Positions 2,163 to 41,345 are shown, counted from the stretch's first letter. The stretch: 52,043 nucleotides of DNA from an uncultured Rhodospirillaceae bacterium (GCA_900318605.1 ONLJ01000070.1:1-52043), one strand, 5' to 3'. A program made the numbers and translations. The notes: a model not told the origin generated them from the sequence alone.

Positions 2163-2912
2163 TCACTCTCTGATTTTATCTTGACTATATTTCATTACCG
2201 TAAAACCCATTGGATTTATCAAACGCGGCGAAACAAAGCCTCTGTAAGATAAAAATCTCGGAGTAACCGAAGCACGATATTTGGCTTCTTTCAAGACCAG
2301 AGCGCCACCGCTTTCCTGAGTACGAGATAAATTAAACACCGTAAAATAAACAATCCAAACCGGACTGTTTTCGCCAATTCTGCCGATTTTATCAATTCTG
2401 ACCTCGCTGGAATAATCATTATCAAACATATTTTCCACTTTAGCCGCATTTTTACCGACAAACTCACGATACACATCAGGTGCCGACAAATAAGCTACTA
2501 TTCCTCCCGGTCCCCAACGGGTGCGCATTTCCCGCTCATCGTTAACCACCGTATTTCGCATAATAACATATTGTTTAACGAACATCTCGGTCATCTGCTT
2601 AAGCGATGACATTTTGGTATTCATCGGCTCATATCTGACCACTTCATCGGAAGAATTTTGACTGATTATCAACAGCGGCTCAACCAAAATTTCCGGTGCA
2701 AGCCGAAAAACAACCAGCGACGAACACAAGAAAAAGCTCAAAGAAATAACGGCGCACAGCACGACCAATCTTGAAAGCCATCTGAAATACACAAGCTTTG
2801 CCGAAGACGTTACGACTTCTTCATCGGTTATATAATGTTGTTGTATACTTTCTTCTTTACCGCCAGCTCCGGCAATTAAAAGTTTTTTATATCCGTCTCC
2901 CAAAACAGCCAA
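2163..2912 (-). CDS. virB8: VirB8-family bitopic inner-membrane T4SS protein, paralogue 1
   Basis: 249 aa with one TM (LVVLCAVISLSFFLCSSLVVF). It contains FVKQYVIMRNTVVND..EMRTRW...VYREF, aligning by eye with the other copy at roughly one third identity. Confidence 0.75.
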   Translation of the reverse strand: MAVLGDGYKKLLIAGAGGKEESIQQHYITDEEVVTSSAKLVYFRWLSRLVVLCAVISLSFFLCSSLVVFRLAPEILVEPLLIISQNSSDEVVRYEPMNTKMSSLKQMTEMFVKQYVIMRNTVVNDEREMRTRWGPGGIVAYLSAPDVYREFVGKNAAKVENMFDNDYSSEVRIDKIGRIGENSPVWIVYFTVFNLSRTQESGGALVLKEAKYRASVTPRFLSYRGFVSPRLINPMGFTVMKYSQDKIRE

Positions 2913-2932: not shown

Positions 2933-5900
2933 TTATTGAACATATACCGAGCAATAAACCGGCTCTTCATGCTCTATTTTTTCGTTTACGTATTTGTCGC
3001 CTCTTTCTCTTTCTTTATCGAGGATTGCTTTGTCGGTTTTTTCGGTCTTAATTTTTTCGCCGAGTTCTTCTATGCTTTCATCACCTGTTATCGAAACGAC
3101 TTCATCGGCATCCAATTCCAACAAAGCGATTTTTTTCAACAATTGTTCCCTACGCGATATCATTTCATCGAATGTCAGATTCATATTTCCGCCTTCAAGC
3201 AATTTTTTGGCCTCGCGCAGATTTGTTTCTTTACGAGCATTCAAAATATTTTCCGCTTGTTTATAATATGTTTCGTCGCTCAAATCAAATTTTTCGCGGT
3301 CAAAATCATATCCCATAGCCGCAAAAGATTTATACAACATATTTACGAAAACCAAATCATCGACATTACGGCTGTAAAGACTGTTTTTCATTTTATCTTT
3401 AGCTTCCAATGCCATTCTTTCAATATCCATTTTTTCAAGATAATCGGCGAACTGACCGCTCTGCGGTAAAACTCTGTTATACATATTGTACTGCGCACTG
3501 AACTTAATTTCTTCTCCCTCTTCAAATTTATCAAGATAATTTACCAAAAAACTCATTGCTGTCAGCAATTCTTTTCTGAAAGACAAGAATTTAATGTCTT
3601 TTTGTTTTGCCGACAATCCGAGCTCATCGGCAAGCGGCAATCCGTCAACACCGAAGACACCGACCTTAGCATTAGTATATTCCAAAATATTTCCGAGTTC
3701 GCTCGCGCCGATTGCCGAAACAGTATCTGCAGGATTGATACTGATGCGCTCAAATCCTTCCGAAGCACTGACATCATAATAACCGTTTTTATCTTCAGCA
3801 ACAGCCTGACACTGCGGCAAAGTTCCGTATTCTGCAGGAGCAACCGATAATTCGGCATATTGGAGATTTCCCTTTCCGTCAGGAACAACATCAATGATTT
3901 TCCCGGCACTCAAACACGGATAAATACCTGAACGACCGAGTGCATAGCTTTCTTTTTTATCATGATTTAAGAACTTTTCCAAATCCAAATCTTTTTGCAC
4001 AAACGGACGATATGACAATACCAGCTTCCAAATTTCCGGCAATTCCAATCCGCTTTCGAGCAAGCTGTTTTCAACCAGCAAAACATTAGCACCGTTTTTA
4101 GTTGCCTCAGTGATTTTGGAACTGATAATCTCATTATTTTCTCCGGCTTTAAAATCCGATGAGGCATAATAATCGATATAATTCAAATCAGCCAAACCGA
4201 ACGAAAAAATTTCCCTGAGCGGAGCCGACGAAAAATCGACCGGAGCCTTCGGTGCCGCCAAATCTTTTTCCTGAGCGATAAGTCCGACAAAATACCGACT
4301 GTCCGGCTGATAACAGCTGACTTTATCGCAAACATTCGAGAACAAACCGGTCAAACTTTCGGCATATTTCACTACAAGCGCTGCTGCGGCATCGTCTAAA
4401 CCAAGCTCGGCAATCACATCATTAACATCAGGTTCTGTAATTTTCTTGAGCATATCGGTATGAATTTGCACAACCTTCGGATTATTTTGAGCATAATACA
4501 GACTGTCGGCATTATTATTTTTCATCTTTGACAACTTCTCCAGAGCTTCTTCAGCCTTTTTGGCAGCATATTCTCTGAAATAGTCAATTAACTCCTCAGC
4601 CTCTCCCAATACCGTAAGCTTAGTCACGGCAGAAAGCACTTGTTGCTGAATTTCACTTAGAGTATTATCTTCAACAATATCTTCTAAACCTGATTTATAT
4701 TTTTGCTCGGCATTATAATACGCCAAAACCTTATCCGCCCTGACTTCATTGATTTCGGCCTCAATTTGCTTTATTTTCTCCAAGATAATCTTTTTGGAAT
4801 CGTTTACATTGCGCAAACTGTCGCCGGCATTATTTCTGGCGATTTCCGCATTTTGCTCTTTCTGCGACTGTTCTTTAATATTACGATTATACTTATCGGT
4901 CAAAGTTTCATGCGGATTATCCGGATTTTGAAATTGTTTATCAAAATCTGCTCCGAAACCGGCCTGCTCATTATAGTCTTCGGAATAGTTAATTACCTCA
5001 TTTTGCTTTTCGATTTCTGCATGCAAATCAGCCTGTTTTATATTAACATCTTCGAGTTCTTTATAAGCGGCAACTCTTTTCTTCTCGAGTTCTGCCAATT
5101 TTTTATTATGCTCGGCGGTAATATTTTCCAAATCAACTTTTTCCTGAGCCAAAATTGCTTCGATTTGCTCAACTTTAGAATCACGATCATCGCCGATTGC
5201 TTCAATAAGCCCGTTAATTTCCTCGGCAACTTCTTTTCTGATAGCTTCAACACTCTTGGTTATAATACCGTCGGCATTTCTCTCCGCCTCATATTCGAAA
5301 GTTTCGTTTATTTTCAGACCAAGCCCGAGAATTTCCTTAAATAATGAAGCATTAAGGAAATAATTTTTGATATTTTCATATTTATCGTCGATGTACTGAT
5401 TATAAAAATTCATCTGGTCATTCCAAAGCGGGAACGGCTTAGTATTAACTCCGAACTTACTTTTACCGGAAACACCGTTTACATCTTTATTGATTTCCTC
5501 GTTGGCAAGCGCACCGACACTCGTATTAAGCCGACCGAGAACTCGCATTTTTTCCAAATACTTATCGGCAAGGATTTCTCCGTTTTCAATTTGATATTTA
5601 TAGTCCTTTGCCGCCCGATAATCGGTATTCGGTCCGACTTCTTCATCAGGCTCCGGTTCCGAAGTCGAAGCTTTAATAATATAATTTTCCTCTTTCGGTT
5701 CAAAATCCGACAGTTCATCTTTGGCATTAAGATACATATTTATCAACCAACCCGACATTCCGCCGACTTCATTGTATGCACTTGATGAAAGCTTATAACA
5801 CTTTTGCGCGGCATTATCAGGACAAGCCACATCATAAATACCCTCACTTTCGCTGTTATCACTGAAACTTTTTGCCGGACTATAAGCACAGACATATCCT

Positions 5901-7099
5901 TCTTTATCGTCCACCATACAGTTATCAAGCCAAACTTTCTGACTGTTATCATACCTTTGTGCCAGATAGTTCAGCACGCAAGTCTGTGATTTTTGCAGAT
6001 TATCCGATGCTTTAAGGTGCATTTTTTCCATACTGTGATAATCATCAAAAACCCTTTTCATCTCCGGAAGTTGTTGTTTCAAGTTATGGCTTTCGAACGC
6101 TGCCGATAATTTATCTTCGACCTCATGAAAGACCGCCATTGCTTTTATATCGGCTTCTTTTCCGTCAAGAGGTGTTTTCAAATCAATTTGATTATTTTCG
6201 CTAAAATCAAACTTTGAATCCGGAATTTCCTCTACAATCAACTCTTCATCTTCGATTTCCTGAGAAGCATAAATATTGCTTTCGGTCAAATAACCGCTGA
6301 CTTTGGAAGTTTTTTGTTTTTTACCCGAATACGGTTTAGGTTTAACGCCCTGTCCCAAAGTTCTTACAGCCTCATATTGAGCGCGCATAGCCATCAGATA
6401 TTCGTTTCTCTTCATTATTTCATCATAGATATCGGCAACCAATACGGCATTACGACGATAACACATTTCATCTTCGCTTCCGTCATCTTTCTGACAATTA
6501 AACTCCTCCATATCTGCCGCCTTACAACCTTCGGCATCATTCAGAATTATGCACTTTTCTATAACATCGAGTTGCGCCAACATAACCGTCAGCTCTTTAT
6601 CCATTTCTCTGGCTGTAATATAAAGTTCCAAAGTAGTATCTTCAACAAACTGTTCTCTTTTTTCCTTATACGAAGCCTGAACTTCCTCATCATCGGACGG
6701 GATATAAAGAAAATACTTTTTGAATGTTTCTTTTACCAACGCCACATCATCAAGTCTGGTTTTGGTTTGTTTTATCATACGGGCATAAGAAACCGGCTTT
6801 TCATCACTGTCTTTTTTCTTCCATTTATCTTTATATTTGCTCAAAAACTCCTCTCCCTTACCTCTGGCATATTTTTCGAAATGTGCCTTAGTTTCATCTA
6901 AGACCCCTTTTATATTTTTGTTTTCGACAACTTCTTTCATAGCTTTGATAGCGCTTGCTTTTGCCGCAAGTTGCTCAGAGGTACATTCTGCACAAAATTG
7001 TGCAGCCACACTGCTGAGCGGAGTTAAATCCGGCCCGATAGCATAAGATTTGAACGAAAATAAAATTGAACAAACACAAAACAACCAAAACTTTTTCAT
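2933..7099 (-). CDS. giant (1388 aa) secreted coiled-coil-rich, Cys-pair-containing protein of unknown function, T4SS-associated by position
   Basis: An uninterrupted 4.2-kb ORF. An RBS GGAG lies upstream of the ATG at 7099. Sec signal MKKFWLFCVCSILFSFKSYA|IG, with no other hydrophobic helix. Long K/E/Q-rich heptad-like stretches alternate with globular parts carrying paired cysteines (FCAEC, EKC..EGC..FNC..EMC, DNC..YVC, VAC..QKC, NVCDKVSC). I recognise no family motif. Confidence 0.8.
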   Translation of the reverse strand: MKKFWLFCVCSILFSFKSYAIGPDLTPLSSVAAQFCAECTSEQLAAKASAIKAMKEVVENKNIKGVLDETKAHFEKYARGKGEEFLSKYKDKWKKKDSDEKPVSYARMIKQTKTRLDDVALVKETFKKYFLYIPSDDEEVQASYKEKREQFVEDTTLELYITAREMDKELTVMLAQLDVIEKCIILNDAEGCKAADMEEFNCQKDDGSEDEMCYRRNAVLVADIYDEIMKRNEYLMAMRAQYEAVRTLGQGVKPKPYSGKKQKTSKVSGYLTESNIYASQEIEDEELIVEEIPDSKFDFSENNQIDLKTPLDGKEADIKAMAVFHEVEDKLSAAFESHNLKQQLPEMKRVFDDYHSMEKMHLKASDNLQKSQTCVLNYLAQRYDNSQKVWLDNCMVDDKEGYVCAYSPAKSFSDNSESEGIYDVACPDNAAQKCYKLSSSAYNEVGGMSGWLINMYLNAKDELSDFEPKEENYIIKASTSEPEPDEEVGPNTDYRAAKDYKYQIENGEILADKYLEKMRVLGRLNTSVGALANEEINKDVNGVSGKSKFGVNTKPFPLWNDQMNFYNQYIDDKYENIKNYFLNASLFKEILGLGLKINETFEYEAERNADGIITKSVEAIRKEVAEEINGLIEAIGDDRDSKVEQIEAILAQEKVDLENITAEHNKKLAELEKKRVAAYKELEDVNIKQADLHAEIEKQNEVINYSEDYNEQAGFGADFDKQFQNPDNPHETLTDKYNRNIKEQSQKEQNAEIARNNAGDSLRNVNDSKKIILEKIKQIEAEINEVRADKVLAYYNAEQKYKSGLEDIVEDNTLSEIQQQVLSAVTKLTVLGEAEELIDYFREYAAKKAEEALEKLSKMKNNNADSLYYAQNNPKVVQIHTDMLKKITEPDVNDVIAELGLDDAAAALVVKYAESLTGLFSNVCDKVSCYQPDSRYFVGLIAQEKDLAAPKAPVDFSSAPLREIFSFGLADLNYIDYYASSDFKAGENNEIISSKITEATKNGANVLLVENSLLESGLELPEIWKLVLSYRPFVQKDLDLEKFLNHDKKESYALGRSGIYPCLSAGKIIDVVPDGKGNLQYAELSVAPAEYGTLPQCQAVAEDKNGYYDVSASEGFERISINPADTVSAIGASELGNILEYTNAKVGVFGVDGLPLADELGLSAKQKDIKFLSFRKELLTAMSFLVNYLDKFEEGEEIKFSAQYNMYNRVLPQSGQFADYLEKMDIERMALEAKDKMKNSLYSRNVDDLVFVNMLYKSFAAMGYDFDREKFDLSDETYYKQAENILNARKETNLREAKKLLEGGNMNLTFDEMISRREQLLKKIALLELDADEVVSITGDESIEELGEKIKTEKTDKAILDKERERGDKYVNEKIEHEEPVYCSVYVQ

Positions 7100-7111
7100 T
7101 TTTCATCTCCT

Positions 7112-8320
7112 TCAAATTCTATGCCACAAATCCTTAACTTTATCCTTATTTTGCTCAAGGAACTCTTTTCCTTTTTTAAGCAAATCGTTTTTTTTCAATT
7201 CATAAGAATCAAAATCAAATTCCGTTACCGGCTTTTTATAATCATAAAGATGATATTTATTGTTCCAAGAAGTCATATCTTGCGAAGTTTTCAATCTGAT
7301 TTCGGCAAGCAATGCTTCGGTAAAGCGCGCCGCCGCTTTAGCATTTTCGATGATTATTGCGATATTGGCATTTTTCAGCGCATAATTTCCCTCAACATCT
7401 GTTGCCATCTCCGTATATTGTGTAACTTGCTCTTCCAAATCGGCGGAAGCGGCCGTACCGACAACCGCAACTTCCATAGCTTTTTGCAAAGCATCATAAT
7501 AGGCTCTTTGGCGGTTTTTCTTAATTCTTGCCATATTTTCGCTTGAAGTTTCTTCTGATTCTTTTAAGAATAGTGCCTCTATCTCGGTTTGATAAATCGA
7601 CTGATTTTCTTTGGAATCGGTTTCGTCATCAAACAAATCGGCATTTTCCGCCTGTTCCTGAAGTCCTGCTTTAACAGCCGTATCATCAGCTTCCGGCTTC
7701 AGTTTTTCAACTTCTTTAGCGGCTTTTTTTTCCTTATCTTCCAATCCCTGATAGGTTTCATCATTTATCGGCTGGTCCAGAATATGTTGTTTCTGCGCCT
7801 CCAAATCGGCAATTTCATCGACCAGTTTTTTATGATCGTCTTCACTGAGATTACTGCTTTGAACTTTGGCTCTCAATTCGGTCAAACGCTCATCAATTTG
7901 CTTTATTTTTTCCATCTGAGCATCTTTTTGTGCCGCGATATAATCATCTTTTTGCGCCGTTGCCGCCGCCAATTTATTTTCGGCTTTTTTCAATTCCTGA
8001 CGCTTTTGTTTGGCTTTGGCAACTTCCTGCTCTATTTTTTCATCAACATAGCTTCTGGCATATTTTCCGGCTTTATCCGCGGCATATTTTTTAGCCCTCT
8101 CTGCAAGCTCACCGCTTGTAGCCAAACGGATAATCTTATTTGCCTCGGTAACCACTCCGTCAACAGTTTCCTGCGCCTTATTGGCATAATCTTCGATTAC
8201 CGGCAGATTTGCTTTAACCGCTCTGATAGAACTACTGAGCTTTACTACGGCAAAAGCAGGCGTAAACAACATAGCTTGCGCCGCGATAATAAGGATTAAC
8301 ATTTTACCAAACTTTGTCAT
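7112..8320 (-). CDS. secreted coiled-coil protein (402 aa), unknown function
   Basis: Start revised from the track (8401) to the ATG at 8320 (CAT 8318-8320), which has an AGGGGA RBS 7 nt upstream. This removes a 62-nt overlap with the upstream gene. Sec signal MTKFGKMLILIIAAQAMLFTPAFA|VV. The body is K/E/A-rich and helical. Confidence 0.7.
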   Translation of the reverse strand: MTKFGKMLILIIAAQAMLFTPAFAVVKLSSSIRAVKANLPVIEDYANKAQETVDGVVTEANKIIRLATSGELAERAKKYAADKAGKYARSYVDEKIEQEVAKAKQKRQELKKAENKLAAATAQKDDYIAAQKDAQMEKIKQIDERLTELRAKVQSSNLSEDDHKKLVDEIADLEAQKQHILDQPINDETYQGLEDKEKKAAKEVEKLKPEADDTAVKAGLQEQAENADLFDDETDSKENQSIYQTEIEALFLKESEETSSENMARIKKNRQRAYYDALQKAMEVAVVGTAASADLEEQVTQYTEMATDVEGNYALKNANIAIIIENAKAAARFTEALLAEIRLKTSQDMTSWNNKYHLYDYKKPVTEFDFDSYELKKNDLLKKGKEFLEQNKDKVKDLWHRI

Positions 8321-8339
8321 ATCAATTCCCCTTATTAAA

Positions 8340-9035
8340 TCATTCGCCATCCTTGTTTTCGTCTTTTTCATCCTCTGCTTCATCAGGCTTAACTGCGGCA
8401 AGCTGTTTCATTGAAGTCTGAGCCATCAAGCTTGCATCTTGTTGAAGCATTGATATCCACCGATTATTAGCCCGTTGTATAGTCTCGGTAAACACCGTCT
8501 GCACACCGGCAACATTATTAAAATCCTCAATTTTTTCCTTCTTTTCGTTATCAAGTTGGAAGCGACGCACCAATCCTCTGGCATACATTGAAGAAACATT
8601 TTCAATCATCAAATCATTGGTCATTTCTTCCAGCTGTTTATTTTTCTCGACATCATCGCTGCTGCGCTTTGAAACCGTAAATATTTTTTTCGCCGCATCT
8701 CTCATCAACGGGTTAGAACCGACACCGTTAATAATACTGGTAAATTCACTGGGAACTTTGTCGTCCAGATTCCATCCGTCAACAGCCAATTTCAGTGCAT
8801 CTTTTGCATTACTTTTCAATTCATCGACATTAAAATTCGCTGCTTTATCCGAAACCAAATTTTGCGATTTTTCCTGAAGCAAGGACATAGCGTTTTCGTT
8901 GATTTTCCCTATTCCGTCTTTTTGCGCAAGAGTAACCAATTCCACCATATAAGTTGATATATCGAAATCGGCATACGCAAAAGAAGGCGATATCATCAAC
9001 CCCGCAACGATAAAATAATTCCAAAATTTTCTCAT
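8340..9035 (-). CDS. secreted helical protein (231 aa); a VirB5/TrbJ-like role is possible from size and position only
   Basis: Sec signal MRKFWNYFIVAGLMISPSFAYA|DF and a predicted all-helical, hydrophilic body. The size matches VirB5-type minor pilins, but I cannot see a diagnostic motif. Confidence 0.6.
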   Translation of the reverse strand: MRKFWNYFIVAGLMISPSFAYADFDISTYMVELVTLAQKDGIGKINENAMSLLQEKSQNLVSDKAANFNVDELKSNAKDALKLAVDGWNLDDKVPSEFTSIINGVGSNPLMRDAAKKIFTVSKRSSDDVEKNKQLEEMTNDLMIENVSSMYARGLVRRFQLDNEKKEKIEDFNNVAGVQTVFTETIQRANNRWISMLQQDASLMAQTSMKQLAAVKPDEAEDEKDENKDGE

Positions 9036-9050
9036 CGCACTTCTCCGAAT

Positions 9051-10130
9051 TTACTTATCAATTTCCTCACACTCGCCGTTTGAACAAGAAATCATAATAC
9101 TGTCATCGGAAGCGTGAGCAAAAGTACCGTCCGGACAATTTCTGCGTTCGCAATTCAAAACAGTTGCTCCGTTTTTTTCTCCGTAATTACAATATTCACA
9201 TGTTCTCGCATCAATAAGCTGCCAACCTATTCCGTTGACATTATTAAAACTTATGTCGCCCGAAACATTCTGCGGCGAAGAATTTTCGCTCACACTAACC
9301 TTTACACACTCTTTATTTTTGCATTTCCAACCGACATTATTATCATTAGGATCGGCATATTCCCCGTCAGGACATACTTCATTTCGACATTCCGGTTTAT
9401 TATCTTCTCTCTTAACACAGAATCTGCACTGACCGTCTCCGACAAATTGCCATTTATCCGTAAGCACATATTCTTCCGCAACGATTGTATTAACCACTTC
9501 AGCTTCGGCACCACCGGTTGAACCGGCCGAACTTTCCGAATTTTCCGCTGCTTGATTATCTCTATCCTGAGCATCTTGCAACTCACTGATTGAGGCAACT
9601 TCGGTCAAAACATCTTTACTGATATTTTCGATATTGGAAATAGCCAGATATTTAAGCTGTTCTACATACAAGTCTCTGAAACTGTTAACTACCGAAGTCA
9701 ACACTGCATTGGTATTGATTGCCGCTCCGTCAACATCATTTACTGTTTTAGCATTAGCATTTACTTCGGCAACTTCTTCGCTTTGTTTAAGATAATATCC
9801 GGCAACCGCTGCACCTTTAGCCACAGCAAGTGACATCATTTCCTGCAGTTCATCGGCTTTGATTTCGTTTAAGTCTTTCAAACCTTCTCTTGCAATTTCG
9901 GCATTACTGCTTCGACGTTTTAGTGCCAAAGTATTGATACAATTCCGCAGTTTCTGCGGGTCTTTAACCATATCTTCCGCCGAAGTTTTGCAGTGTGTAG
10001 CCATTGTATTCGGAATCAGCTGATAACTTTCCTTATAAACACCGGAAAAAACCTCCTCTTCAGCCTTAAGCGAGTCGCAAACAAAAGCCGAAACAACTAA
10101 CATCGCAAAAATTTTCATCAACTTTTTCAT
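9051..10130 (-). CDS. secreted protein (359 aa) with a helical N-half and a duplicated 6-Cys C-terminal module
   Basis: Sec signal MKKLMKIFAMLVVSAFVCDSLKA|EE. The C-terminal part contains two copies of W-Q-x-[VI]-x-D-x(2,3)-C-x-[FY]-C-x(8,10)-C-x(3)-CPDG-x-[YF]-A-x(8,10)-C-x-N-x-EC. Confidence 0.7.
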   Translation of the reverse strand: MKKLMKIFAMLVVSAFVCDSLKAEEEVFSGVYKESYQLIPNTMATHCKTSAEDMVKDPQKLRNCINTLALKRRSSNAEIAREGLKDLNEIKADELQEMMSLAVAKGAAVAGYYLKQSEEVAEVNANAKTVNDVDGAAINTNAVLTSVVNSFRDLYVEQLKYLAISNIENISKDVLTEVASISELQDAQDRDNQAAENSESSAGSTGGAEAEVVNTIVAEEYVLTDKWQFVGDGQCRFCVKREDNKPECRNEVCPDGEYADPNDNNVGWKCKNKECVKVSVSENSSPQNVSGDISFNNVNGIGWQLIDARTCEYCNYGEKNGATVLNCERRNCPDGTFAHASDDSIMISCSNGECEEIDK

Positions 10131-10166
10131 AACCGCAAACTCCTTAATTTTTAAAACTTGTTACCT

Positions 10167-10688
10167 TTATTTGCCCCTAATGCCAATTTTTTCATCGATT
10201 TGAACATTCTTTTTATTTACCCAATTATAGGCCTTATTAACTTTTGCTTTGATATTTTCTTCGGCCTTTTCACGATTTTCATCAATTTTTTTACGAGCGG
10301 AACTTATTCCTTCTTTAAGTTTTTCAAATTTGTTTTTAGCTGTTTTCTGGGATTCTTCGCCTGCTTCTTTTTTGGCTTTTTCCTTTTTTTCCTGCTCAAG
10401 CTTATACTTATCAAAGCCTATTTTTTTAGCATCTTTAACAAACTCACCGATATTTCCGCTGGCCACATTTTTTAACATACCGACCACTCCCCAAAGCGAA
10501 TTTTCTTTTATCCTTGAAACTGTTTGATTGACTCGTTCTTTTACCATAGATACAGTCGAGACTTTTGTTTCAACCTGAGTTAAATTCTCGCTGATACTGT
10601 TGGTAGGCAACGGATAAGACCACGCATTATCCGAGCAGATGAACACAGCAAAAACCGCAATAAATGAAATCAAGCTAAATTTTCTCAT
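10167..10688 (-). CDS. small secreted Lys/Glu-rich protein (173 aa), unknown function
   Basis: GGAGG RBS upstream of the ATG at 10688. Sec signal MRKFSLISFIAVFAVFICSDNAWS|YP. The C-terminal half is KEKAKKEAGEESQKTAKNKFEKLKE-type charged helix. Confidence 0.65.
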   Translation of the reverse strand: MRKFSLISFIAVFAVFICSDNAWSYPLPTNSISENLTQVETKVSTVSMVKERVNQTVSRIKENSLWGVVGMLKNVASGNIGEFVKDAKKIGFDKYKLEQEKKEKAKKEAGEESQKTAKNKFEKLKEGISSARKKIDENREKAEENIKAKVNKAYNWVNKKNVQIDEKIGIRGK

Positions 10689-17233: not shown

Positions 17234-18004
17234 ATGATAAAAAAATATGAAACAAAAACATCTTTCAGTCTTTTGGGAATGATTGTTTGTTTATTTATGA
17301 CTTCCGGATGTGCGCGCGATATCAATGCCGCCGGCACACAATGCGCTGACGGAATCTGTACCAGCAACAGTGATTATACTGCCGTTTGCCAAGAAACCCC
17401 TGACGGATACAGTATTTGCAACGAAGCTGCACCTCAAGGAGTTAATTACACCAGAACGGCTGCCGACTTTAGAGAATACGGAGAGAGAACACCTCGGGAT
17501 TATCGCATAACCCAAGCCGGAGCAGGCAACAATATGTCTGCCGTCGTAAGACCGACCATTGAGGATGAGGTTGTTGATTATGAAGCTCAGGTTATAGCTC
17601 AACAAAGCGTTCCTCAACCTGCAGCGACACCTGCGCAGCAGGCAGCTGCGGCGCTTAATCCTAATCCTAATCCGGTTCCGGTAAATTATCAGCAACAACC
17701 ACAGACAACTGAAAATAATAGCGAAGCAAAGGAATTAGTAAAAGATTGGCTTGCCGAAGAAGGTCAGAGTTTGAAAGAACTGCTAACCGCATGGAGTGAA
17801 GAAGCAGGATGGAGATTGATTTGGAAAACCAATCGTAACTATACCCTTAATGCAGGAGCAATGTTCAGAGGAAACTTTGCCGACGTATCGTCAGCATTGG
17901 TAAGAGCCTTTGCTCGTGCGAGACCGGCTCCGATTGCAACATTTTATAAAGGAAACCGCGTTTTAGTGATTGAAACAATGGAGGACGAAAATGCGTATGA
18001 CTAA
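17234..18004 (+). CDS. pilL: PilL-like lipoprotein with a C-terminal TcpQ-type domain
   Basis: Lipobox LFMTSGC|A. The C-terminal WLAEEGQSLKELLTAWSEEAGWRLIWKTNRNYTLNAGAMFRGNFADVSSALVRAF....IATFYKGNRVLVI matches the remembered TcpQ/PilL domain pattern (W..G.tL...L..W....GW.l.W......G.f..A...L......fy.N.vl.V). Confidence 0.75.
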   Translation: MIKKYETKTSFSLLGMIVCLFMTSGCARDINAAGTQCADGICTSNSDYTAVCQETPDGYSICNEAAPQGVNYTRTAADFREYGERTPRDYRITQAGAGNNMSAVVRPTIEDEVVDYEAQVIAQQSVPQPAATPAQQAAAALNPNPNPVPVNYQQQPQTTENNSEAKELVKDWLAEEGQSLKELLTAWSEEAGWRLIWKTNRNYTLNAGAMFRGNFADVSSALVRAFARARPAPIATFYKGNRVLVIETMEDENAYD

Positions 18005-19625
18005 TTGGTATAAATTTGGAATTTTAGGAATTTTAGGGATTCTCGTTGCATGTTCCGTTTCTCCGGAACTTGATGCCGAGATGGCCAATCAGGCAAAACA
18101 AGCTTCTGATTTGAAGCAGAAATCTGCCGTTCCGGGTGAACCGATTCCCGATGATGTCGTCAGAGTAAAAAATGATATTTGGCTCGGCGATACCAGTAAG
18201 ATTGAGTTTGAAGGCGAACCGATTCCGGCATATTTGGAAAAAGAAGACGGTATTACCCTTATCAGCAACCGCCCGATTACGTTGTATGAAATCGGCAGCA
18301 TGATAAGCAAAATCACATCCATTTCGGTAAGATATGCCCCTGAGCTGGAAAGCACGGCGATTTCGGCTGCAGACAGCAATCCTCCGGAGATGAAAGATCT
18401 CGGTGCGCAATGGACCGATTCCACAAAGATGATTGTAAACTACAAAGGACCGATGAGCGGTTTATTGGATGAAGTAGCCAATCGCTTTTCAATTTGGTGG
18501 AAATATGATAGAAATGAGCTTTATTTCTATAAATATATAACAAAGACATTTACCATTTATTCTTTACCTACCAATCCGTCTTTAAGTGTTTCCGTCGGCG
18601 GTTCCGGCGGTTCATCCAGCATCAGCCAGAGTAGCTCTGTTGATGGTTTGGATATGTGGGCAAATATTGAAAGTACCATCAATGCAATGGTGACGTCGGA
18701 TGCGAATTTAGTAATTGACAAAGGTAACGGAACCATTTCATTGACCGCAACTCCAACTGACATCAGACGCGTTGCTAAATATGTCAACGAGCAGAATGCC
18801 CGCTTATCGAAACAAGTTGCCATCAGTGTAAAAGTTATTCAAGTTAACATCAAAAACTCTGATCAATACAGCTTAGATTTGGATGCGGTATTTAAGGCTC
18901 GTGGTTCAATTAAAGACATAACCGGCGCAACTACTGCAACAGCCGAAAGCCCTATCAGTTCTTTGACGATGGGTATCAGCTCTAAGCGTTGGAGCGTTGA
19001 TGCGGCAATAAATGCTTTGTCGAGTGAAGGTCAAACCAATTTGGTTACCAGCGGTACCGTAACGACGATGAACAACAAGCCGGCACCGATTCAGGTAGTT
19101 AAAACACAAAACTACGTATCACAGATTACCAAAACCAACAGCGGTGACAGTGATAACTATGATATTTCGGTTGATACCGAAGAAATCGAAACCGGTTTCA
19201 CGATGGGCGTATTGCCGAGAGTCTTGGATCACGGTCGTATTTTGATGTTCTTTAACCTGACATTATCCGACTTGCTTGCTTTGGATAAAGTAAATGTCGG
19301 CGGCAAATCTGGTTCATCCGGTGGAGATGATGAGGGTGGTGATGAAGGCGATGACGATGATGAAGGCGACAGCGAATTCATTCAAAACCCTGTAATCGAA
19401 ACCCGAGGCTTCACACAAGAAGTAGCTATGAAGTCTGGCGAAACATTGATTTTGGCAGGTTACGAGCGTGTTGAAAACACCATCGATAAAAAAGGTGTAG
19501 GCACACCGGAAAACAACCTTTTAGGCGGTTCTTCAAGTGCCGGCAGAGACAGAACAATTTTGGTTATCATGTTAACACCGGTTGTTTTGGAATCTCCGCT
19601 CTCGCCTGAATCGAGAATGAATTAG
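17991..19625 (+). CDS. pilN: type IVb pilus secretin lipoprotein, R64 PilN family
   Basis: Start set at the ATG at 17991 with a GAGGAC RBS at 17981-17986. Lipobox ILGILVAC|S. Secretin C-domain motifs: LVTSGTVTTMNNKPAPIQVVKTQNYV, GFTMGVLPRVLDHGRILMFFNLTLSDL, IETRGFTQEVAMKSGETLILAGYE, RTILVIMLTPVVL. Confidence 0.85.
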   Translation: MRMTNWYKFGILGILGILVACSVSPELDAEMANQAKQASDLKQKSAVPGEPIPDDVVRVKNDIWLGDTSKIEFEGEPIPAYLEKEDGITLISNRPITLYEIGSMISKITSISVRYAPELESTAISAADSNPPEMKDLGAQWTDSTKMIVNYKGPMSGLLDEVANRFSIWWKYDRNELYFYKYITKTFTIYSLPTNPSLSVSVGGSGGSSSISQSSSVDGLDMWANIESTINAMVTSDANLVIDKGNGTISLTATPTDIRRVAKYVNEQNARLSKQVAISVKVIQVNIKNSDQYSLDLDAVFKARGSIKDITGATTATAESPISSLTMGISSKRWSVDAAINALSSEGQTNLVTSGTVTTMNNKPAPIQVVKTQNYVSQITKTNSGDSDNYDISVDTEEIETGFTMGVLPRVLDHGRILMFFNLTLSDLLALDKVNVGGKSGSSGGDDEGGDEGDDDDEGDSEFIQNPVIETRGFTQEVAMKSGETLILAGYERVENTIDKKGVGTPENNLLGGSSSAGRDRTILVIMLTPVVLESPLSPESRMN

Positions 19626-19642
19626 AAAATGGGAGAAAACCA

Positions 19643-20890
19643 GTGGCAGAAGATCAAGTAGAAGAAAAAGCATGGAAGTCCACCTTCACGGAAGGTGGTA
19701 CGACCTATGCGGCGAGTTTGTTCTGGCAGCCGTTACTGAATGAAAACAATCCGTTATCCGAAGTAAAGGAAGCCGCAGAAAATATTTTGGAAGGCGCTGA
19801 TCTTTATGTTACGCGTAAGGGCAAATCTTCTCAGTTTGGTCTTGCTGCCTCCAGCCAAGGTTTTACAAAAGGCCTTCCTTCCGCGGCCATAGCACTCGTA
19901 TCAAGTCTCGGTTCAATAACCTCGTTTTTGGGTGTATTTAAGGTAGATACCGGATGGTGGTATATCTGTTATCGTAATGACGTTATTCTTTCCGATGGTG
20001 ATACCTTATTTGTAGATGAAAAAGAGGCTAAAGACCAATTTATTTCGATGTTGGCGGTACCGGACTGGGATGTTCTGTTTGCTCCGAAAGAATGGGGCAT
20101 TGAAGACACAAATCCTGATCCTTTAAGCAAGTACATCAGCAAAGGTGTTCATACAAAACTCGACAAGATTAACGCATCCAACGACACTTTGATGCTGGCG
20201 GCAATTATTGTCGGTTTTGCCATTATTCTCTGGTACGGATACACCAGTTTGCAAAGCATGCTGTTTACCGCGCCCGAAAAACCGATTATTGCGCCTGTGG
20301 AACAGGTTGAAGCCGAAGTTGTTCAGCAGGCTCCGGAAACAAAACCGTGGGAAGAATTGTCGAACCCGATTGATGTCATGAAAAATTGTTATGAAGCGAC
20401 CAAAAAAGCCGTAGAAATAGTAACACCGGGATGGCATATTGAAGGAATTACCTGTAACAAAAAAGGACTTGTTACCTCGTGGAGACGTGAACTGGGAAGA
20501 TTAACATGGATGGATCAGGCCCTTGAAACATCAGGAGTACGATTGACATCAAAAGTCATATCCGAAGACGGTAACACCTTTATGGTAACGATTCCGGTTG
20601 ATAAAGTATCCACACTTAATTCCCCGCCGGAATTTAAGCCGGAGGACTTAAACAATATCATCAATGATATCAATCAAACTTTAAACATAAATATCAGCAC
20701 TACCCAAAAGACATGGACATCACCGAGAGGCAGTGTTTACAATGTCATGGGATTTTCAATAACATCAAACAACGATCCGTTGATATGGCTTGAATTTCTT
20801 ATGAAATTTTCCGGTTTGACAATTAACGAAATTACATATAATATCAACAACAGATCTTGGACTTACAATGGAGAGATTTATGAGTTATAA
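19643..20890 (+). CDS. pilO: PilO-like type IVb pilus assembly protein (415 aa, single central TM)
   Basis: GTG start with a GGGAGA RBS. It has an N-terminal cytoplasmic domain (..YAASLFWQPL..) and one TM (LMLAAIIVGFAIILWYGY). Position and size fit R64 PilO. The motif-level support is weak. Confidence 0.5.
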   Translation: MAEDQVEEKAWKSTFTEGGTTYAASLFWQPLLNENNPLSEVKEAAENILEGADLYVTRKGKSSQFGLAASSQGFTKGLPSAAIALVSSLGSITSFLGVFKVDTGWWYICYRNDVILSDGDTLFVDEKEAKDQFISMLAVPDWDVLFAPKEWGIEDTNPDPLSKYISKGVHTKLDKINASNDTLMLAAIIVGFAIILWYGYTSLQSMLFTAPEKPIIAPVEQVEAEVVQQAPETKPWEELSNPIDVMKNCYEATKKAVEIVTPGWHIEGITCNKKGLVTSWRRELGRLTWMDQALETSGVRLTSKVISEDGNTFMVTIPVDKVSTLNSPPEFKPEDLNNIINDINQTLNINISTTQKTWTSPRGSVYNVMGFSITSNNDPLIWLEFLMKFSGLTINEITYNINNRSWTYNGEIYEL

Positions 20891-22451
20891 TTTGAAAAAT
20901 AAAGCCGTAGTAATATTTGCCATCGCATTTTCGCTTTCATTAGCGTTGGCCGGCAATGTCAAAGCTGAAGAAGAAGTTGCCGAAGCAGCGGTTACGGTTG
21001 AAGAACAGCCTGTTGAAAATGTTCAAGAGGCAATCCCTGCTGAAGATGATCCGTTCGGTATTGAAGATACACCGGAAATTCAGGACAGTGAAATTCCCCC
21101 TGCCGAAACGGCTCCGGCGCCTGCGCCTGAACCTGTAAATAACGGTATTGCGCCTGCGGAACAGAGTTTTCCTGAATTTAACGGTATGCCGGAAGATGTT
21201 ATCGGTTCTAGCGATGATGCAAGCATGGGATTGGCTGAAGCTAATGTAGATCCGGAAACTCCTAAAACTCCGATTGAAAAATACGGAAACACGATTCTTT
21301 CAAGAGTTGATAACGAATTGTTCAACCAGATGTCTGAAATTGAAAAACAGACAACCTTGCTCAATTTGGAATTAAAACGCGAGGAAGTAAAGAACCGTAT
21401 TGAAGCCTTAAAAGCTCAACGTGAAAAAGCCAAGCAGGAAGAACTTGATCGTCAAGCTGCTCGCGAAAAACAAGCTCGTGATGAAGAGTTAAAGCGCCAG
21501 AAAGAACTTTTGCGCGAACAGATGCGCTTAAAAGAAAAAGAGATGGAGCTTGAAAAGATAAGACAAGCTAAGATTTTGAGCGCTTATATGAATGAAATGC
21601 TCGTATCCAACCAACAGTGGGTTGAGACTAATGCCAAGCTTTCGGCACAAATTAAGAAACTCCAAGACGAGCGTATGGCTATTTTGGCAGAAAACGATGC
21701 CCGTATGGAAAAAATCGGCAACAGAGTGCTTATAACCGCTCAGAATGCCGAGGATACCCGCGTTGCTTATGAGAGAAAAATTTCCTCTTTCAATAAGCAG
21801 ATTGAGGAATTGAAACAAATAATCAAAGATAAAGATGCAGCTTTGGCAAACATGGCAGAAAATGGTGGTTCTTCGGATAATCCGTTTGCCGCAACCGAAT
21901 ACATCGACGAAGATACCGTAGATATGTCCAAAGAATATGCCATTATGGATATAACCGGAAAAGGCGATAATATTGTTGCCAAGCTTGTAAGTCAAGACGG
22001 CACGACATTTACCGTACGTAAAGGTTCTATTTTGAAAGGCGGCGAAGTTGTTGTCAGCATTACCGATAAGATTATTACCTTTGAAAATCACGGAGCAAAG
22101 AGTTATCTTTATACCGGAGGTACGGTAATGCAATATGAGCCAACAGAAGCGTTTAACGATGCAACAAAGACACCTGAAGTTGCAGTAGGAGCTCCGGTTA
22201 AAGTACAGGAAATCCGCAATGTCAGAGGAGCTACTCCTAACAGCAACTCATCAACCTTAAAGAATGCCGTTGATAATGCGGTAAATATGCCGCCACAGAT
22301 AAATGAGAAAACCAAGCGTTCTTCTTCGACCTCTGTTTCATCGTCCTCGAAGTCAAATACCTCTGCTTCGAATACTGCAACAACGTCATCATCATCGTCA
22401 TCCTCAAACAAAGGAATAGCCTCTTTCAGTCAGGGGATGATGGTAAAATAA
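20880..22451 (+). CDS. pilP: PilP-like protein expanded by a long coiled coil and a Ser-rich tail (523 aa)
   Basis: Start set at the ATG at 20880 (GGAGAG RBS). Signal MSYNLKNKAVVIFAIAFSLSLALAGNVKA|EE. Pro/Glu-rich linker, then a ~170-aa K/E/R/Q coiled coil, then a beta-rich segment EYAIMDITGKGDNIVAKLVSQDGTTFTVRKGSILKGGEVVVSITDKIITFE resembling the PilP secretin-binding domain. It ends in the tail SSSTSVSSSSKSNTSASNTATTSSSSSSSNK. Confidence 0.55.
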   Translation: MSYNLKNKAVVIFAIAFSLSLALAGNVKAEEEVAEAAVTVEEQPVENVQEAIPAEDDPFGIEDTPEIQDSEIPPAETAPAPAPEPVNNGIAPAEQSFPEFNGMPEDVIGSSDDASMGLAEANVDPETPKTPIEKYGNTILSRVDNELFNQMSEIEKQTTLLNLELKREEVKNRIEALKAQREKAKQEELDRQAAREKQARDEELKRQKELLREQMRLKEKEMELEKIRQAKILSAYMNEMLVSNQQWVETNAKLSAQIKKLQDERMAILAENDARMEKIGNRVLITAQNAEDTRVAYERKISSFNKQIEELKQIIKDKDAALANMAENGGSSDNPFAATEYIDEDTVDMSKEYAIMDITGKGDNIVAKLVSQDGTTFTVRKGSILKGGEVVVSITDKIITFENHGAKSYLYTGGTVMQYEPTEAFNDATKTPEVAVGAPVKVQEIRNVRGATPNSNSSTLKNAVDNAVNMPPQINEKTKRSSSTSVSSSSKSNTSASNTATTSSSSSSSNKGIASFSQGMMVK

Positions 22452-22462
22452 AGTAAGATACC

Positions 22463-24172
22463 ATGGCAGAAGATAATTTGGTAGAAGAAATTTTAGACAC
22501 GGACGAAGCCGAAAATATAAAAAAGTCGGCGAGTCCGCGTCCCGCTTTGCAAGAAAAACCCAAAACATCCGGCGATATTCAGCAGGATGAAGAGGATAAC
22601 AGCAAGGGAAATATTTTTGAAAGTCTTTTTGCCAACGGAAATACTTTAGTAACAGCCGAAAAGGGCGAGCTTGCCATCGACAGCGAAACCCGCCGAATGG
22701 TTGCTTTGTTCTCGGACGGAACTTATCTGGTTGATGCAGCTCACCGTTTTGACGGTAAGGTATTGAACTTTACCTCCATTGCCCGCAGAAGAAAATTTCA
22801 GATTTTTCCTCCGGAATATGTGTCAGCGCAAGAAATTGCCGCAATATACGCATACGCCGAGCGCGGAATGGGACAGATTGATATTTCTCCGGAAGAAACC
22901 GAAGAATATCAAATGCAGATTGACTTTTTGAGTGTTATTAACCGTGCCGCCTCAAAAAAAGTATCCGACGTACACATTGTCGTTGCCGATTCAACATTGG
23001 TTATGTTCAGAATGGCAGGTATGATGGAACGTGAGCTCGAATATTCGAAAGAATGGGGAGAAGCGTTTGTTCGTGCAGCTTTTGCATCAGCTGATATTTC
23101 CGATGCCAACTACGCCCAAAATGAATTTCAGGGCGCACAAAAATTAGGTTCGACACCTTTGCGCGGCACCAACGGAAAATTAAAACTTCCGCATAACGTA
23201 TTGGCTATTCGTTTACAATTTAACCCGGTTGCTTTCGGTTCGCAATATCTGGTAATGCGTTTGTTGTATGCCGACGATAATCCGAACGGAAACGGCGATT
23301 TGAAGGGATTGGGACTGGGCGATCGAGAAATAAATATGTTTTATCGTTTGCGGGCAAATGCGATAGGACTTAATATTATTGCCGGCCCGACAGGTTCAGG
23401 AAAATCTACTACTTTGCAGCGTAATATGATTAAGCTGATTCAGGAACACAATAACGAGATTAACGTTATCACGGTGGAAGATCCACCGGAGTATCCGATT
23501 CCCGGTGCAAGACAAATGCCTGTTACCAATGCCAATACCGAAGAAGAAAAAGATGAGGAATTTACCAAAGCCTTATCCGCAGCACTTCGTTCCGACCCTG
23601 ACGTCATGATGGTCGGTGAGATTCGTTCGCTTTCGGCGGCAGGCCTTGTGTTCAAGGGCGCCTTGTCCGGACACAGCGTTTGGACGACACTGCACGCCAA
23701 CTCGGCACCGGCGATTATTACCCGTTTACGTGATATGGGTGTTCAGCCGTATATGCTTTGTGATCCTGAGCTGATTAAAGGACTGATTTCTCAACGTTTG
23801 TTCAGAAAGCTTTGTCCTTATTGTCGAATTTCGGTAAAAGAGCGTATGCTTGACCCTTCTTTTGAACGCCTTAAGACAGCCCTCGGCGATTATGGAATTG
23901 AAAACACCTATTTAAGAGGTCCGGGATGTAAAAATTGCGGACACAAGGGAGTTATCGGCCGCATGTCGGTACCGGAAATCATTATTCCGGATGCCAATTT
24001 ATTAAAGATGTTGGTCGAAGGCGATACCAAAAATGCGATTGATTACTGGATAAGCGAGCTTAATGGTCGTCCGCTCCGCGAAGCTGCAATTGAACGTATG
24101 CTTAAAGGAATGATTGACTTGGATGAAGTCGAACGCTGGTGCGGTTTATTGGATCAACGTCCTATTTATTAG
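22463..24172 (+). CDS. pilQ: GspE/PilB-family pilus assembly ATPase (R64 PilQ-like)
   Basis: Walker A IIAGPTGSGKSTT, Asp box VITVEDPPEYPI, Walker B DPDVMMVGEIRS, His box GHSVWTTLHANS, tetracysteine CPYC...CKNCG. Confidence 0.9.
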   Translation: MAEDNLVEEILDTDEAENIKKSASPRPALQEKPKTSGDIQQDEEDNSKGNIFESLFANGNTLVTAEKGELAIDSETRRMVALFSDGTYLVDAAHRFDGKVLNFTSIARRRKFQIFPPEYVSAQEIAAIYAYAERGMGQIDISPEETEEYQMQIDFLSVINRAASKKVSDVHIVVADSTLVMFRMAGMMERELEYSKEWGEAFVRAAFASADISDANYAQNEFQGAQKLGSTPLRGTNGKLKLPHNVLAIRLQFNPVAFGSQYLVMRLLYADDNPNGNGDLKGLGLGDREINMFYRLRANAIGLNIIAGPTGSGKSTTLQRNMIKLIQEHNNEINVITVEDPPEYPIPGARQMPVTNANTEEEKDEEFTKALSAALRSDPDVMMVGEIRSLSAAGLVFKGALSGHSVWTTLHANSAPAIITRLRDMGVQPYMLCDPELIKGLISQRLFRKLCPYCRISVKERMLDPSFERLKTALGDYGIENTYLRGPGCKNCGHKGVIGRMSVPEIIIPDANLLKMLVEGDTKNAIDYWISELNGRPLREAAIERMLKGMIDLDEVERWCGLLDQRPIY

Positions 24173-24184
24173 AAGGAATGAACG

Positions 24185-25312
24185 ATGCCTGAAATAAAAA
24201 AGATTAGTGCCTTTAACAGAGCTTTAAGAGGAAGCACCAATAAATATGTTGCTTCAATAGCAAAAGCTTTTTCCATGATGTCGAACAAACGACGCCTGAA
24301 AATATACCGCAAATTGGCAGCCCTATTAAAAAACAGGTTTTCTTTGATGAATTCCCTTGATATGATATACAATGGCTTATCTGATGAAGGAAAGAACCCG
24401 TATGATCCGATGGCGATTGCAGTCAGTTCGTGGGGACGTGCTCTGCAGGAAGGTTTACCGTTCTCCGATGCCTTAAAAGGCTGGGCTCCTAACCGCGAAC
24501 GCCTTATGTTGTCGGTCGGTGACGTTTCCGACTTGGAGAGTGCGTTATTAAACCTTATTAAGGTGGCGGAAGGTTCAACCCGAATGATTCGCCCGATTTT
24601 AAGCGCCATTACATACCCGTCATTCTTGTTAATGATGTCGGTTTTGATTTTGTATGCCATCGGTGTCTATATGGTTCCGCCGATGCTTGATGCCGCACCT
24701 AACACTAAGTGGACCGGAACGGCAAAAACTTTGATTAACTTGTCGGAGTGGATTCAAGTAAACTGGCTGACGGCATTTTCAATACTTCCGGCCATCGGCT
24801 TGCTTATTTACCTTACCATCGGAATTTGGACCGGTCCGTTAAGGGTAAAATTTGATCGTTTTCCACCATGGTCCTTATATAAGATTTTTACCGGTATTAC
24901 TTGGCTTTTAGCCTTATCAGCCTTAGTAAAAGGCGGTGTTCCGGTTTCGGTAGCTTTAACTTCTTTAAAGCGTGATTCCAACCGTTATTTGGTTGAGCGT
25001 ATTGATAGCGCTCTCGACCATATTAAAAACGGTGAAAACTTAGGACAAGCCTTAGATAAAGCCGGCAAAGAGTTTCCGGATAAGCAGATTATTTCCGATT
25101 TGAAGATTTATTCCGAGTTGGATAACTTCGAAGAAGCCTTAGATAAACTGGCGAATGAATGGTTGGAAGAATCAGTATACATCATCGAACAACGTTCCGA
25201 AATTATGAACATGATTGCGATGCTGACCGTTTCCGGTATTATTGCATGGGCGGTGTTCGGAACATTCGATATGCAAGATCAGATTACCAGTGCCATGGGC
25301 AAAGGCGGCTGA
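24185..25312 (+). CDS. pilR: GspF/PilC-family inner-membrane platform protein (R64 PilR-like)
   Basis: 375 aa with three hydrophobic spans (ITYPSFLLMMSVLILYAIGVYMV, WLTAFSILPAIGLLIYLTIGIW, MIAMLTVSGIIAWAVFGTF) and two helical cytoplasmic repeats. It lies directly after the ATPase. Confidence 0.8.
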   Translation: MPEIKKISAFNRALRGSTNKYVASIAKAFSMMSNKRRLKIYRKLAALLKNRFSLMNSLDMIYNGLSDEGKNPYDPMAIAVSSWGRALQEGLPFSDALKGWAPNRERLMLSVGDVSDLESALLNLIKVAEGSTRMIRPILSAITYPSFLLMMSVLILYAIGVYMVPPMLDAAPNTKWTGTAKTLINLSEWIQVNWLTAFSILPAIGLLIYLTIGIWTGPLRVKFDRFPPWSLYKIFTGITWLLALSALVKGGVPVSVALTSLKRDSNRYLVERIDSALDHIKNGENLGQALDKAGKEFPDKQIISDLKIYSELDNFEEALDKLANEWLEESVYIIEQRSEIMNMIAMLTVSGIIAWAVFGTFDMQDQITSAMGKGG

Positions 25313-36344: not shown

Positions 36345-36414
36345 TTACATTATATTAGCAATTTCAGGTTTAGCATAAAGCAAAATTGTATTCATTATAC
36401 GGGATTTTTTGAAA

Positions 36415-41282: not shown

Positions 41283-41345
41283 AACCAAACCTTAAAATTT
41301 TTACGATAAAATCCGCTCAATATTTGTGTCCGGAAAGGTTTGAAT

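Follow-up and report, generated by a model that had tools for sequence, protein, structure and literature searches.

The expanded Cag and Dot/Icm type IV secretion systems (T4SSs) contain periplasmic subunits that are specific to their lineages and lack homologues elsewhere, and lineage-specific accessory subunits of enlarged T4SSs are already a known phenomenon. The hallmarks of the rvh system of Rickettsiales are a duplicated virB8 around virB7, five virB6 paralogues, several virB2 genes, and no detectable virB5; its virB6 paralogues lie directly after virB3–virB4, and it has no block of secreted open reading frames (ORFs) (PMC2653234). Here, we examined a T4SS locus in a 52,043-nt stretch of DNA from an uncultured Rhodospirillaceae bacterium (GCA_900318605.1, ONLJ01000070.1:1–52043; the whole stretch is hereafter called the window) and, within this locus, the gene for a protein of 1388 amino acids, which we call the giant. 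The locus shares the rvh hallmarks, with two virB8 genes around a 62-amino-acid ORF, multiple virB6 genes, several virB2 genes, and no detectable virB5, but it differs from rvh in that the virB6-like ORFs are found elsewhere in the genome and a block of secreted ORFs follows virB4. In this genome, which is incomplete, we saw no duplication of virB4 or virB9. The giant family is undescribed and carries no annotation anywhere. The reading that we favour, to which we give about an even chance of being correct, is that the giant, exported by Sec and stabilised by disulfides, is a structural subunit of an expanded, rvh-like T4SS and belongs to its extracytoplasmic part.

The giant gene, its locus, and its distribution

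The giant ORF (2933–7099, minus strand) encodes 1388 amino acids; residue numbers below refer to this chain. An initial annotation of this DNA had reported an uninterrupted 4.2-kb ORF with a ribosome-binding site and a Sec signal, ending 20 nt before virB8, and each of these elements was confirmed, with the gene on the minus strand (Table 1). Between the stop codon (TAA, 2935–2933) and the TTG start codon of virB8a at 2912 lie 20 nt that include GGGAGA, and the stop codon of the upstream gene, o429, lies at 7114–7112. The gaps to o429 and virB8a are thus 12 nt and 20 nt, respectively, and each gene is preceded by a ribosome-binding site of its own. The giant begins with MKKFWLFCVCSILFSFKSYA followed by IGPD, in which a charged n-region, a hydrophobic h-region, and an A-x-A site can be read by eye. 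The cleavage site is kept in homologues, and the mature N-terminus (PDxTPL...APQxCxxCT) is likewise conserved. The signal peptide is the only hydrophobic stretch of the giant: the highest Kyte-Doolittle 19-residue mean was 1.57, at residue 4, and no window exceeded 1.6. The hydropathy scan and reading of the sequence revealed no second transmembrane segment and no lipobox. The combination of a signal with an A-x-A site, no lipobox, and no further transmembrane segment predicts a Sec-exported soluble protein. Its mature chain contains 16 cysteines, and the full-length protein is very acidic (D+E 258 versus K+R 178).

A word-indexed search of 5.8 billion proteins recovered 12 relatives of the giant besides the query, all unnamed. 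An exhaustive search with a profile of the C-terminal 574 residues yielded 265 clusters (50% identity) at E ≤ 1e−3 and 231 at E ≤ 1e−10, mostly of 1200–1850 amino acids. The 265 homologous clusters, together with whole-gene ratios of nonsynonymous to synonymous substitution rates (dN/dS) of 0.07–0.26 in six species pairs, indicate that the ORF is a real gene and not a chance open frame. The relatives are uncultured gut and rumen Alphaproteobacteria. The host order, the genomes of which measure 1.1–2.0 Mb, is presumably GTDB RF32; its small-genome alphaproteobacteria are common in the guts of humans, ruminants, and other animals, and we know of no cultured member.

When the C-terminal profile was applied to 201 genomes drawn from the order, the giant was present in 196 of them and in 22 of 22 genera. 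Three of the five genomes with no match also had no VirB4, and the other two had VirB4 and an N-terminal match that was cut by a contig end. With all five misses accounted for, we found no case of a retained locus without the giant. The window's own genome carries a single copy of the gene and no paralogue.

On the minus strand, the locus consists of three VirB2-like ORFs, a 162-amino-acid secreted ORF, virB3, virB4 (PF03135), signal-peptide ORFs of 173, 359, 231, and 429 amino acids (the last being o429), the giant, virB8a, the 62-amino-acid ORF, virB8b, and virB9 (PF03524), which runs off the window edge. The 62-amino-acid ORF between the two virB8 copies is a putative virB7, by position only, and no VirB6 is encoded in the locus. 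In all of the approximately 20 related loci examined, the giant lay between o429 and virB8a, and the order o429, giant, virB8a, virB7, virB8b, virB9 was held in every one. This fixed slot and the presence of the gene in nearly all genomes searched in the order support the suggestion, made in the initial annotation, of a large T4SS-linked exported protein. That annotation had also named two findings that would speak against such a protein, namely homology to a non-T4SS family and close relatives that keep the locus without the gene; we looked for both and found neither.

The host genome is 85% complete, and the genes downstream of virB9 are not assembled there. In relatives, the operon continues past virB8b with a VirB9 of ~530 amino acids with a C-terminal SPOR domain and a VirB10 of ~1395 amino acids, which carries PF03743 and has beta-flower repeats in its N-terminal part. 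Between virB9 and virB10 lies a membrane-anchored beta-flower repeat protein of 1261–1996 amino acids, composed of 4-fold and 5-fold repeats (DENGNVIGYVD...), with a species-dependent length. Because VirB9, the beta-flower protein, and VirB10 are all enlarged in relatives, the T4SS machine is enlarged in several parts. The absence of a VirB10-like C-terminus from the giant, noted in the initial annotation, agrees both with the lack of any Pfam match and with this separate downstream virB10.

Domain layout, shared core, and sequence evolution

The AlphaFold2 (AF2) model of residues 600–1388 had a predicted local distance difference test score (pLDDT) of 81.1 and a predicted template modelling score (pTM) of 0.69. 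Within it, residues 641–810 are predicted to form an antiparallel coiled-coil hairpin, the helices of which (42–123 and 134–211 of the model) had pLDDT values mostly of 84–95. In both arms, the family-averaged hydrophobicity had a period of 3.5–3.6 residues, with a power that was reached by none of 500 shuffles. Outside the hairpin, the giant is helical or mixed globular in the models; the C-terminal 213 residues were modelled as helical, with a pLDDT of ~70–80 that fell below 60 over the last 20 residues. The K/E/Q/N-rich heptads described in the initial annotation are present, with the heptad stretch at residues 646–699, but they do not extend over several hundred residues as proposed there, because the confident coiled coil covers about 170 (641–810). 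The long fibre, ruler, or adhesin suggested there is so far hypothetical; the coiled coil is predicted to be one folded-back hairpin of ~12 nm and not a long rod. The arms are exactly 82 and 78 residues long in 25 of 25 full-length sequences, at 24–26% identity, and mostly 77–92 residues in 133 more distant representatives, for which the alignment was noisy. The idea of a strict ruler was weakened by this variation and by homologues of 922 and ~620 amino acids that have no hairpin.

Pfam and NCBIfam returned no family for the giant, 13 family members, five extra-long relatives, or four core homologues (described below); the Pfam threshold for the giant and the 13 members was E ≤ 0.1. Searches of PDB sequences gave nothing significant with the giant alone or with profiles A2, A4, and A8. 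Foldseek comparisons of both models with PDB, and of the C-terminal model with BFVD, gave nothing at E ≤ 0.001; the sub-threshold matches were generic coiled coils (SH3BP5, SMC arms, AhlB, and tape-measure proteins). In other words, the C-terminal half has a confidently predicted fold that is unmatched in PDB and BFVD.

A smaller version of the protein exists outside the host family. In a second family of the order, a 922-amino-acid homologue without the hairpin occupies the same slot and retains the N-terminal part, the PREIF and LPEIWK motifs, and a C-terminal ...YCPIY. Among 400 genomes drawn across the class, the giant family was found in only eight relatives, three from its own family and five from four other families. 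These five, out of ~396 genomes from other families of the class and all from outside the order, carry homologues of 622–714 amino acids (hereafter, core homologues) in virB loci, after virB4 or directly ahead of virB8, depending on the extent of the contig. When one of them was used as a query, 37 proteins were recovered including the query, and the one that was named was a "hypothetical protein" from an Alphaproteobacteria metagenome-assembled genome. The core homologues align to residues ~314–390, 480–595, and 1203–1360 of the giant, and the C-termini of the two matched in hhalign with a probability of 99.1% (E = 6e−19).

The initial annotation had emphasised closely paired cysteines, and all the strings that it quoted are present in the giant (Table 1); across the family, however, only Cys374, Cys1062, Cys1097, and Cys1383 are kept, in 117–124 of 133 representatives. 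W559 is kept in 132 of 133 family sequences. In a comparison of four core homologues, the equivalent of Cys374 and the C-terminal cysteine were retained, along with two further cysteines that are 10–15 residues apart in two of the sequences (L047 and L050) and far apart in the other two (L049 and L048). Because Cys374 and Cys1383 are kept both throughout the family and in the core homologues, we infer that they are linked.

Between species of the same genus, the giants shared 26–54% amino acid identity, compared with 82–97% for VirB4, 68–95% for VirB9, and 58–84% for VirB8a from the same loci; the mean Kimura distances were 1.49, 0.14, 0.26, and 0.44, respectively. In the least saturated species pair, dN/dS was 0.137 for the giant and 0.024 for VirB8a. 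Every domain of the giant for which dN/dS could be estimated had a value below 0.4, and the domain-wise values showed no sign of positive selection; the dN of the hairpin was the highest or near-highest in most pairs. The low dN/dS, together with the large divergence relative to the VirB proteins, indicates that the giant is constrained yet fast-evolving. In a mirror-tree analysis (partial Mantel), the giant correlated positively with all VirB proteins, and the analysis therefore did not single out a partner.

At least three lineages carry the giant as two ORFs, divided at linker 1: one for the N1 module and one, with a signal peptide of its own, for the remainder of the protein. Because these lineages encode the N1 module as an exported ORF of its own, the module appears to be a separable exported unit. 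Disruption of the ORF in relatives, a possibility raised in the initial annotation, thus occurs in the form of this splitting in some species, but both resulting ORFs carry signal peptides. One further relative (L016) has a single in-frame TAA within its giant gene.

Proposed role and alternative explanations

Our favoured reading, that of a structural T4SS subunit, builds on what was observed: the signals for export, the place of the gene in the operon, its co-occurrence with the T4SS across the order, purifying selection, the arrangement of domains, and the shared core. In this model, the conserved core, comprising the central helical region with Cys374, the LWNDQ helices, the PLREIF and LPEIWK segments, and the C-terminal domain ending in Cys1383, would dock on the machine, and a Cys374–Cys1383 disulfide would probably tie the two ends of the chain together. 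The N1 module, the extra cysteine-rich beta region, the 12-nm hairpin, and the enlarged beta-rich domain would be later, lineage-specific additions that project outward from the core as a diversifying arm. The seat of the protein could be a periplasmic ring or stalk, or the outer face of the machine.

Several points weigh against this interpretation. The structural role is argued from genomic context, because the giant matches no known T4SS subunit in sequence or fold. The giant diverges approximately 10 times faster than VirB4 and three to six times faster than VirB8 and VirB9, and one would sooner expect such a rate of a substrate, or of an exposed or pilus-associated protein, than of a ring subunit. 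Neither the 922- nor the 620-amino-acid homologues have the hairpin, which is therefore dispensable for the core function. The AF2 model of the N-terminal half (residues 21–640), which used an 18-sequence alignment, was poor (pLDDT 58.6, pTM 0.31), with confident stretches at ~360–460 and 590–630. Furthermore, the two halves were modelled separately, and the Cys374–Cys1383 link, proposed from the pattern of cysteine conservation, could instead be intermolecular.

The rate of divergence is one of the reasons to consider the giant as a surface adhesin or pilus-tip protein, a functional counterpart of VirB5 (or of IcmX or CagL/CagI), which we regard as possible but doubtful. The giant would be transported to the far end of the T4SS or its pilus, where the hairpin and beta-rich domain would touch a host or bacterial target. 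It does occupy the usual virB5 slot in a locus with no detectable PF07996, and rvh-type systems are without virB5 (PMC2653234). Three VirB2 pilin paralogues are encoded upstream, the giant and the neighbouring secreted ORFs all diverge quickly, the latter also varying in number and size, and the high dN of the hairpin would suit a contact surface. However, neither the giant nor the 13 family members nor the core homologues show sequence similarity to VirB5; the giant is six times as large as any VirB5; no domain has a dN/dS near or above 1; and the small ORFs next to the giant are not its paralogues. Its single copy and fixed synteny are also unlike the amplified Trw adhesin genes.

Fast evolution, the signal peptide, and the conserved cysteines would also fit a Sec-dependent T4SS substrate that enters the periplasm, is oxidised there, and leaves through the machine, in the way that the Ptl system releases pertussis toxin. 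Four other signal-peptide proteins are encoded inside the same operon and might be released together with the giant, and the export of the N1 module as a separate polypeptide is compatible with a multi-subunit cargo. We nevertheless judge this quite improbable, because no enzymatic or toxin domain was detectable with Pfam or NCBIfam, the architecture consists mainly of a coiled coil and helical bundles, and the gene is placed within the set of structural genes and not to either side of it; in addition, a single copy throughout the order with a core version in other families is unusual for effectors. A periplasmic or envelope passenger that travels with the operon and has no role in secretion would account for the lack of homology to T4SS parts and of a direct functional link to secretion. 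This is very improbable, given that synteny persists across genera even though the identity of the giant drops to ~26%, that the giant tracks the presence and absence of VirB4 and holds the same slot in distinct alphaproteobacterial families, and that just 12 and 20 nt separate it from its flanking genes.

A more specific proposal, which we consider unlikely, is that the giant family is a new distal T4SS component that replaces VirB5 in rvh-like systems. Intermolecular, head-to-tail Cys374–Cys1383 disulfides would polymerise the subunits or lock a pentameric or hexameric ring, and in the resulting covalent tip or spoke assembly the 12-nm hairpins would fix the reach to the target cell.

The wider locus and comparison with known systems

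Table 1. Coordinates of the giant, its domains, and associated genes. Positions are those of the window unless another contig or locus is named.
Feature	Location	Strand	Remarks
o429, secreted coiled-coil ORF upstream	7112..8401	(-)	always adjoins the giant; not a giant paralogue
Ribosome-binding site AGGAGA	7106..7111	(-)	6 nt ahead of the giant ATG (7099–7097)
Sec-type signal peptide, residues 1–20, MKKFWLFCVCSILFSFKSYA	7040..7099	(-)	A-x-A cleavage site; no lipobox
N1 module, residues 21–255	6335..7039	(-)	helical; FCAEC 35–39 (Cys36/39); EKC/EGC/FNC/EMC (Cys183/192/202/213); separate exported ORF in some species
Linker 1, residues 256–325	6125..6334	(-)	variable length; low-confidence model; fission site in relatives
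Central helix-plus-beta domain, residues 326–470	5690..6124	(-)	AHNLK motif; Cys374; DNC/YVC (Cys394/404); VAC/QKC (Cys426/434); pLDDT 74–86
Linker 2, residues 471–515	5555..5689	(-)	acidic; variable; low-confidence model
Helical domain, residues 516–640	5180..5554	(-)	near-invariant FPLWNDQxxFYxQYIDGKYxNI; part of core common to 620-amino-acid homologues
Predicted antiparallel coiled-coil hairpin, arms 641–722 and 733–810	4670..5179	(-)	~12 nm
Helical region, residues 811–930	4310..4669	(-)	NVCDKVSC 922–929 (Cys924/929)
Beta-rich domain, residues 931–1175	3575..4309	(-)	motifs APLREIF, LPEIWK; family-wide pair Cys1062/Cys1097
C-terminal helical domain, residues 1176–1388	2936..3574	(-)	ends in conserved PYCSVY with Cys1383; segment most widely conserved outside the order
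virB8a (PF04335), downstream gene	2163..2912	(-)	starts 20 nt after the giant stop
Five tandem VirB6-like ORFs (688, 684, 477, 780, 1005 amino acids)	same genome, contig C63, 960–12642	(-)	weak PF04610, just under cut-off
Split giants in relatives	L015 9941–14267; L027; L028 5884–10769
Enlarged VirB9/beta-flower/VirB10 block in relatives	L031 16139–24266; L030 16201–24320; L029 16134–24236; L032 7018–15135

The four signal-peptide ORFs between virB4 and the giant occupy positions 7112–10688 on the minus strand. The 173- and 231-amino-acid ORFs form one paralogous family, and across species the small secreted ORFs differ, numbering 4–5 with lengths of 200–570 amino acids. They had no Pfam or PDB-sequence match, and when their profiles were run against PDB sequences, neither TraC nor TrwJ nor CagL was recovered. 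A paralogous relationship between the giant and these ORFs was rejected because hhalign comparisons with the o429, o173/o231, and o359 families produced no genuine match, the top pairing being one of signal peptide with signal peptide. The giant is also unrelated to the beta-flower repeat protein, and a relationship to the hydrophilic extensions of VirB6-like proteins was rejected, as the VirB6-like ORFs do not match the hidden Markov model (HMM) of the giant. A third, diverged VirB8-like ORF, 25–28% identical to virB8a and virB8b, was found on another contig of the same genome (C46, ~9616–10233, minus strand).

Adjoining the T4SS and divergent from it, a type IVb pilus gene set (17234–25312, plus strand) encodes a TcpQ-like protein, a secretin, a PilO-like accessory protein, a T2SSE ATPase, and a T2SSF platform protein. 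The retention of the T4SS in almost every genome searched, together with this pilus locus, suggests a contact-dependent lifestyle. Elsewhere on the plus strand, the window encodes a 1391-amino-acid AsmA-family protein (28782–32957) and a 1593-amino-acid protein with a BigA-type beta-sandwich domain (41340–46121), both unrelated to the giant, and an 813-amino-acid Lon-like protease of the LonB/LonC type (36409–38850) with AAA_32, LonB lid, LonC helical, and Lon_C domains.

We compared the giant with the T4SS and surface-protein families that it might represent. An identity with VirB6/TrbL (PF04610) was rejected because the giant has no transmembrane segment and no Pfam match, and the VirB6-like ORFs on contig C63 are different. 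A Sca-type protein or autotransporter was likewise rejected, as there is no Pfam match and the C-terminal 213 residues are modelled as helical and not as a beta-barrel. The giant resembles the F-type proteins TraN and TraG in that these are cysteine-rich or large extracytoplasmic T4SS accessory proteins, but it matches neither TraN nor TraG_N in Pfam or NCBIfam; unlike TraG, it has no transmembrane segments, and unlike TraN, which has about 22 cysteines, its family keeps four. We found no literature on the T4SS of this lineage.

VirB5/TraC/TrwJ proteins are similar to the giant in several respects: the giant has a Sec signal, is helical in the models, is encoded after virB4, and evolves fast. 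However, it has 1388 amino acids versus about 220–250 for VirB5, and the VirB5/TraC profile (PF07996) matched neither the giant, the 13 family members, the core homologues, nor the neighbouring ORFs. When the fold was compared, VirB5 being a three-helix bundle with a globular appendage, Foldseek gave generic coiled coils only, with an N-terminal model that was weak (pLDDT 58.6). PF07996 was present in one of 81 genomes of the class, and a homology search with this single VirB5 as the query returned the query alone.

The closest analogy may be with Cag3, CagM, and CagY of Helicobacter and DotF, DotG, and IcmX of Legionella, which like the giant are large exported proteins encoded in T4SS operons. 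Neither these subunits nor the giant have a counterpart in the minimal VirB/D4 set, and the giant shares with expanded-T4SS subunits a system with enlarged VirB9 and VirB10 and with coiled-coil or repeat-bearing extensions. In PDB searches, the giant showed no sequence or Foldseek similarity to the Cag and Dot subunits, and the giant differs from VirB10 and CagY in having no N-terminal inner-membrane anchor and, like the 13 family members, no TrbI (PF03743) domain. The block of secreted proteins that includes the giant distinguishes this machine from every T4SS characterised to date; within the block, the giant is the largest member and has a fixed, single-copy position, whereas the smaller ORFs vary in number and size. 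Placing the giant in the machine would show how T4SSs are enlarged in a third lineage, after those of Cag and Dot/Icm, and could reveal the stand-in for VirB5 in rvh-type systems, a question that dates from the description of the Rickettsia system.

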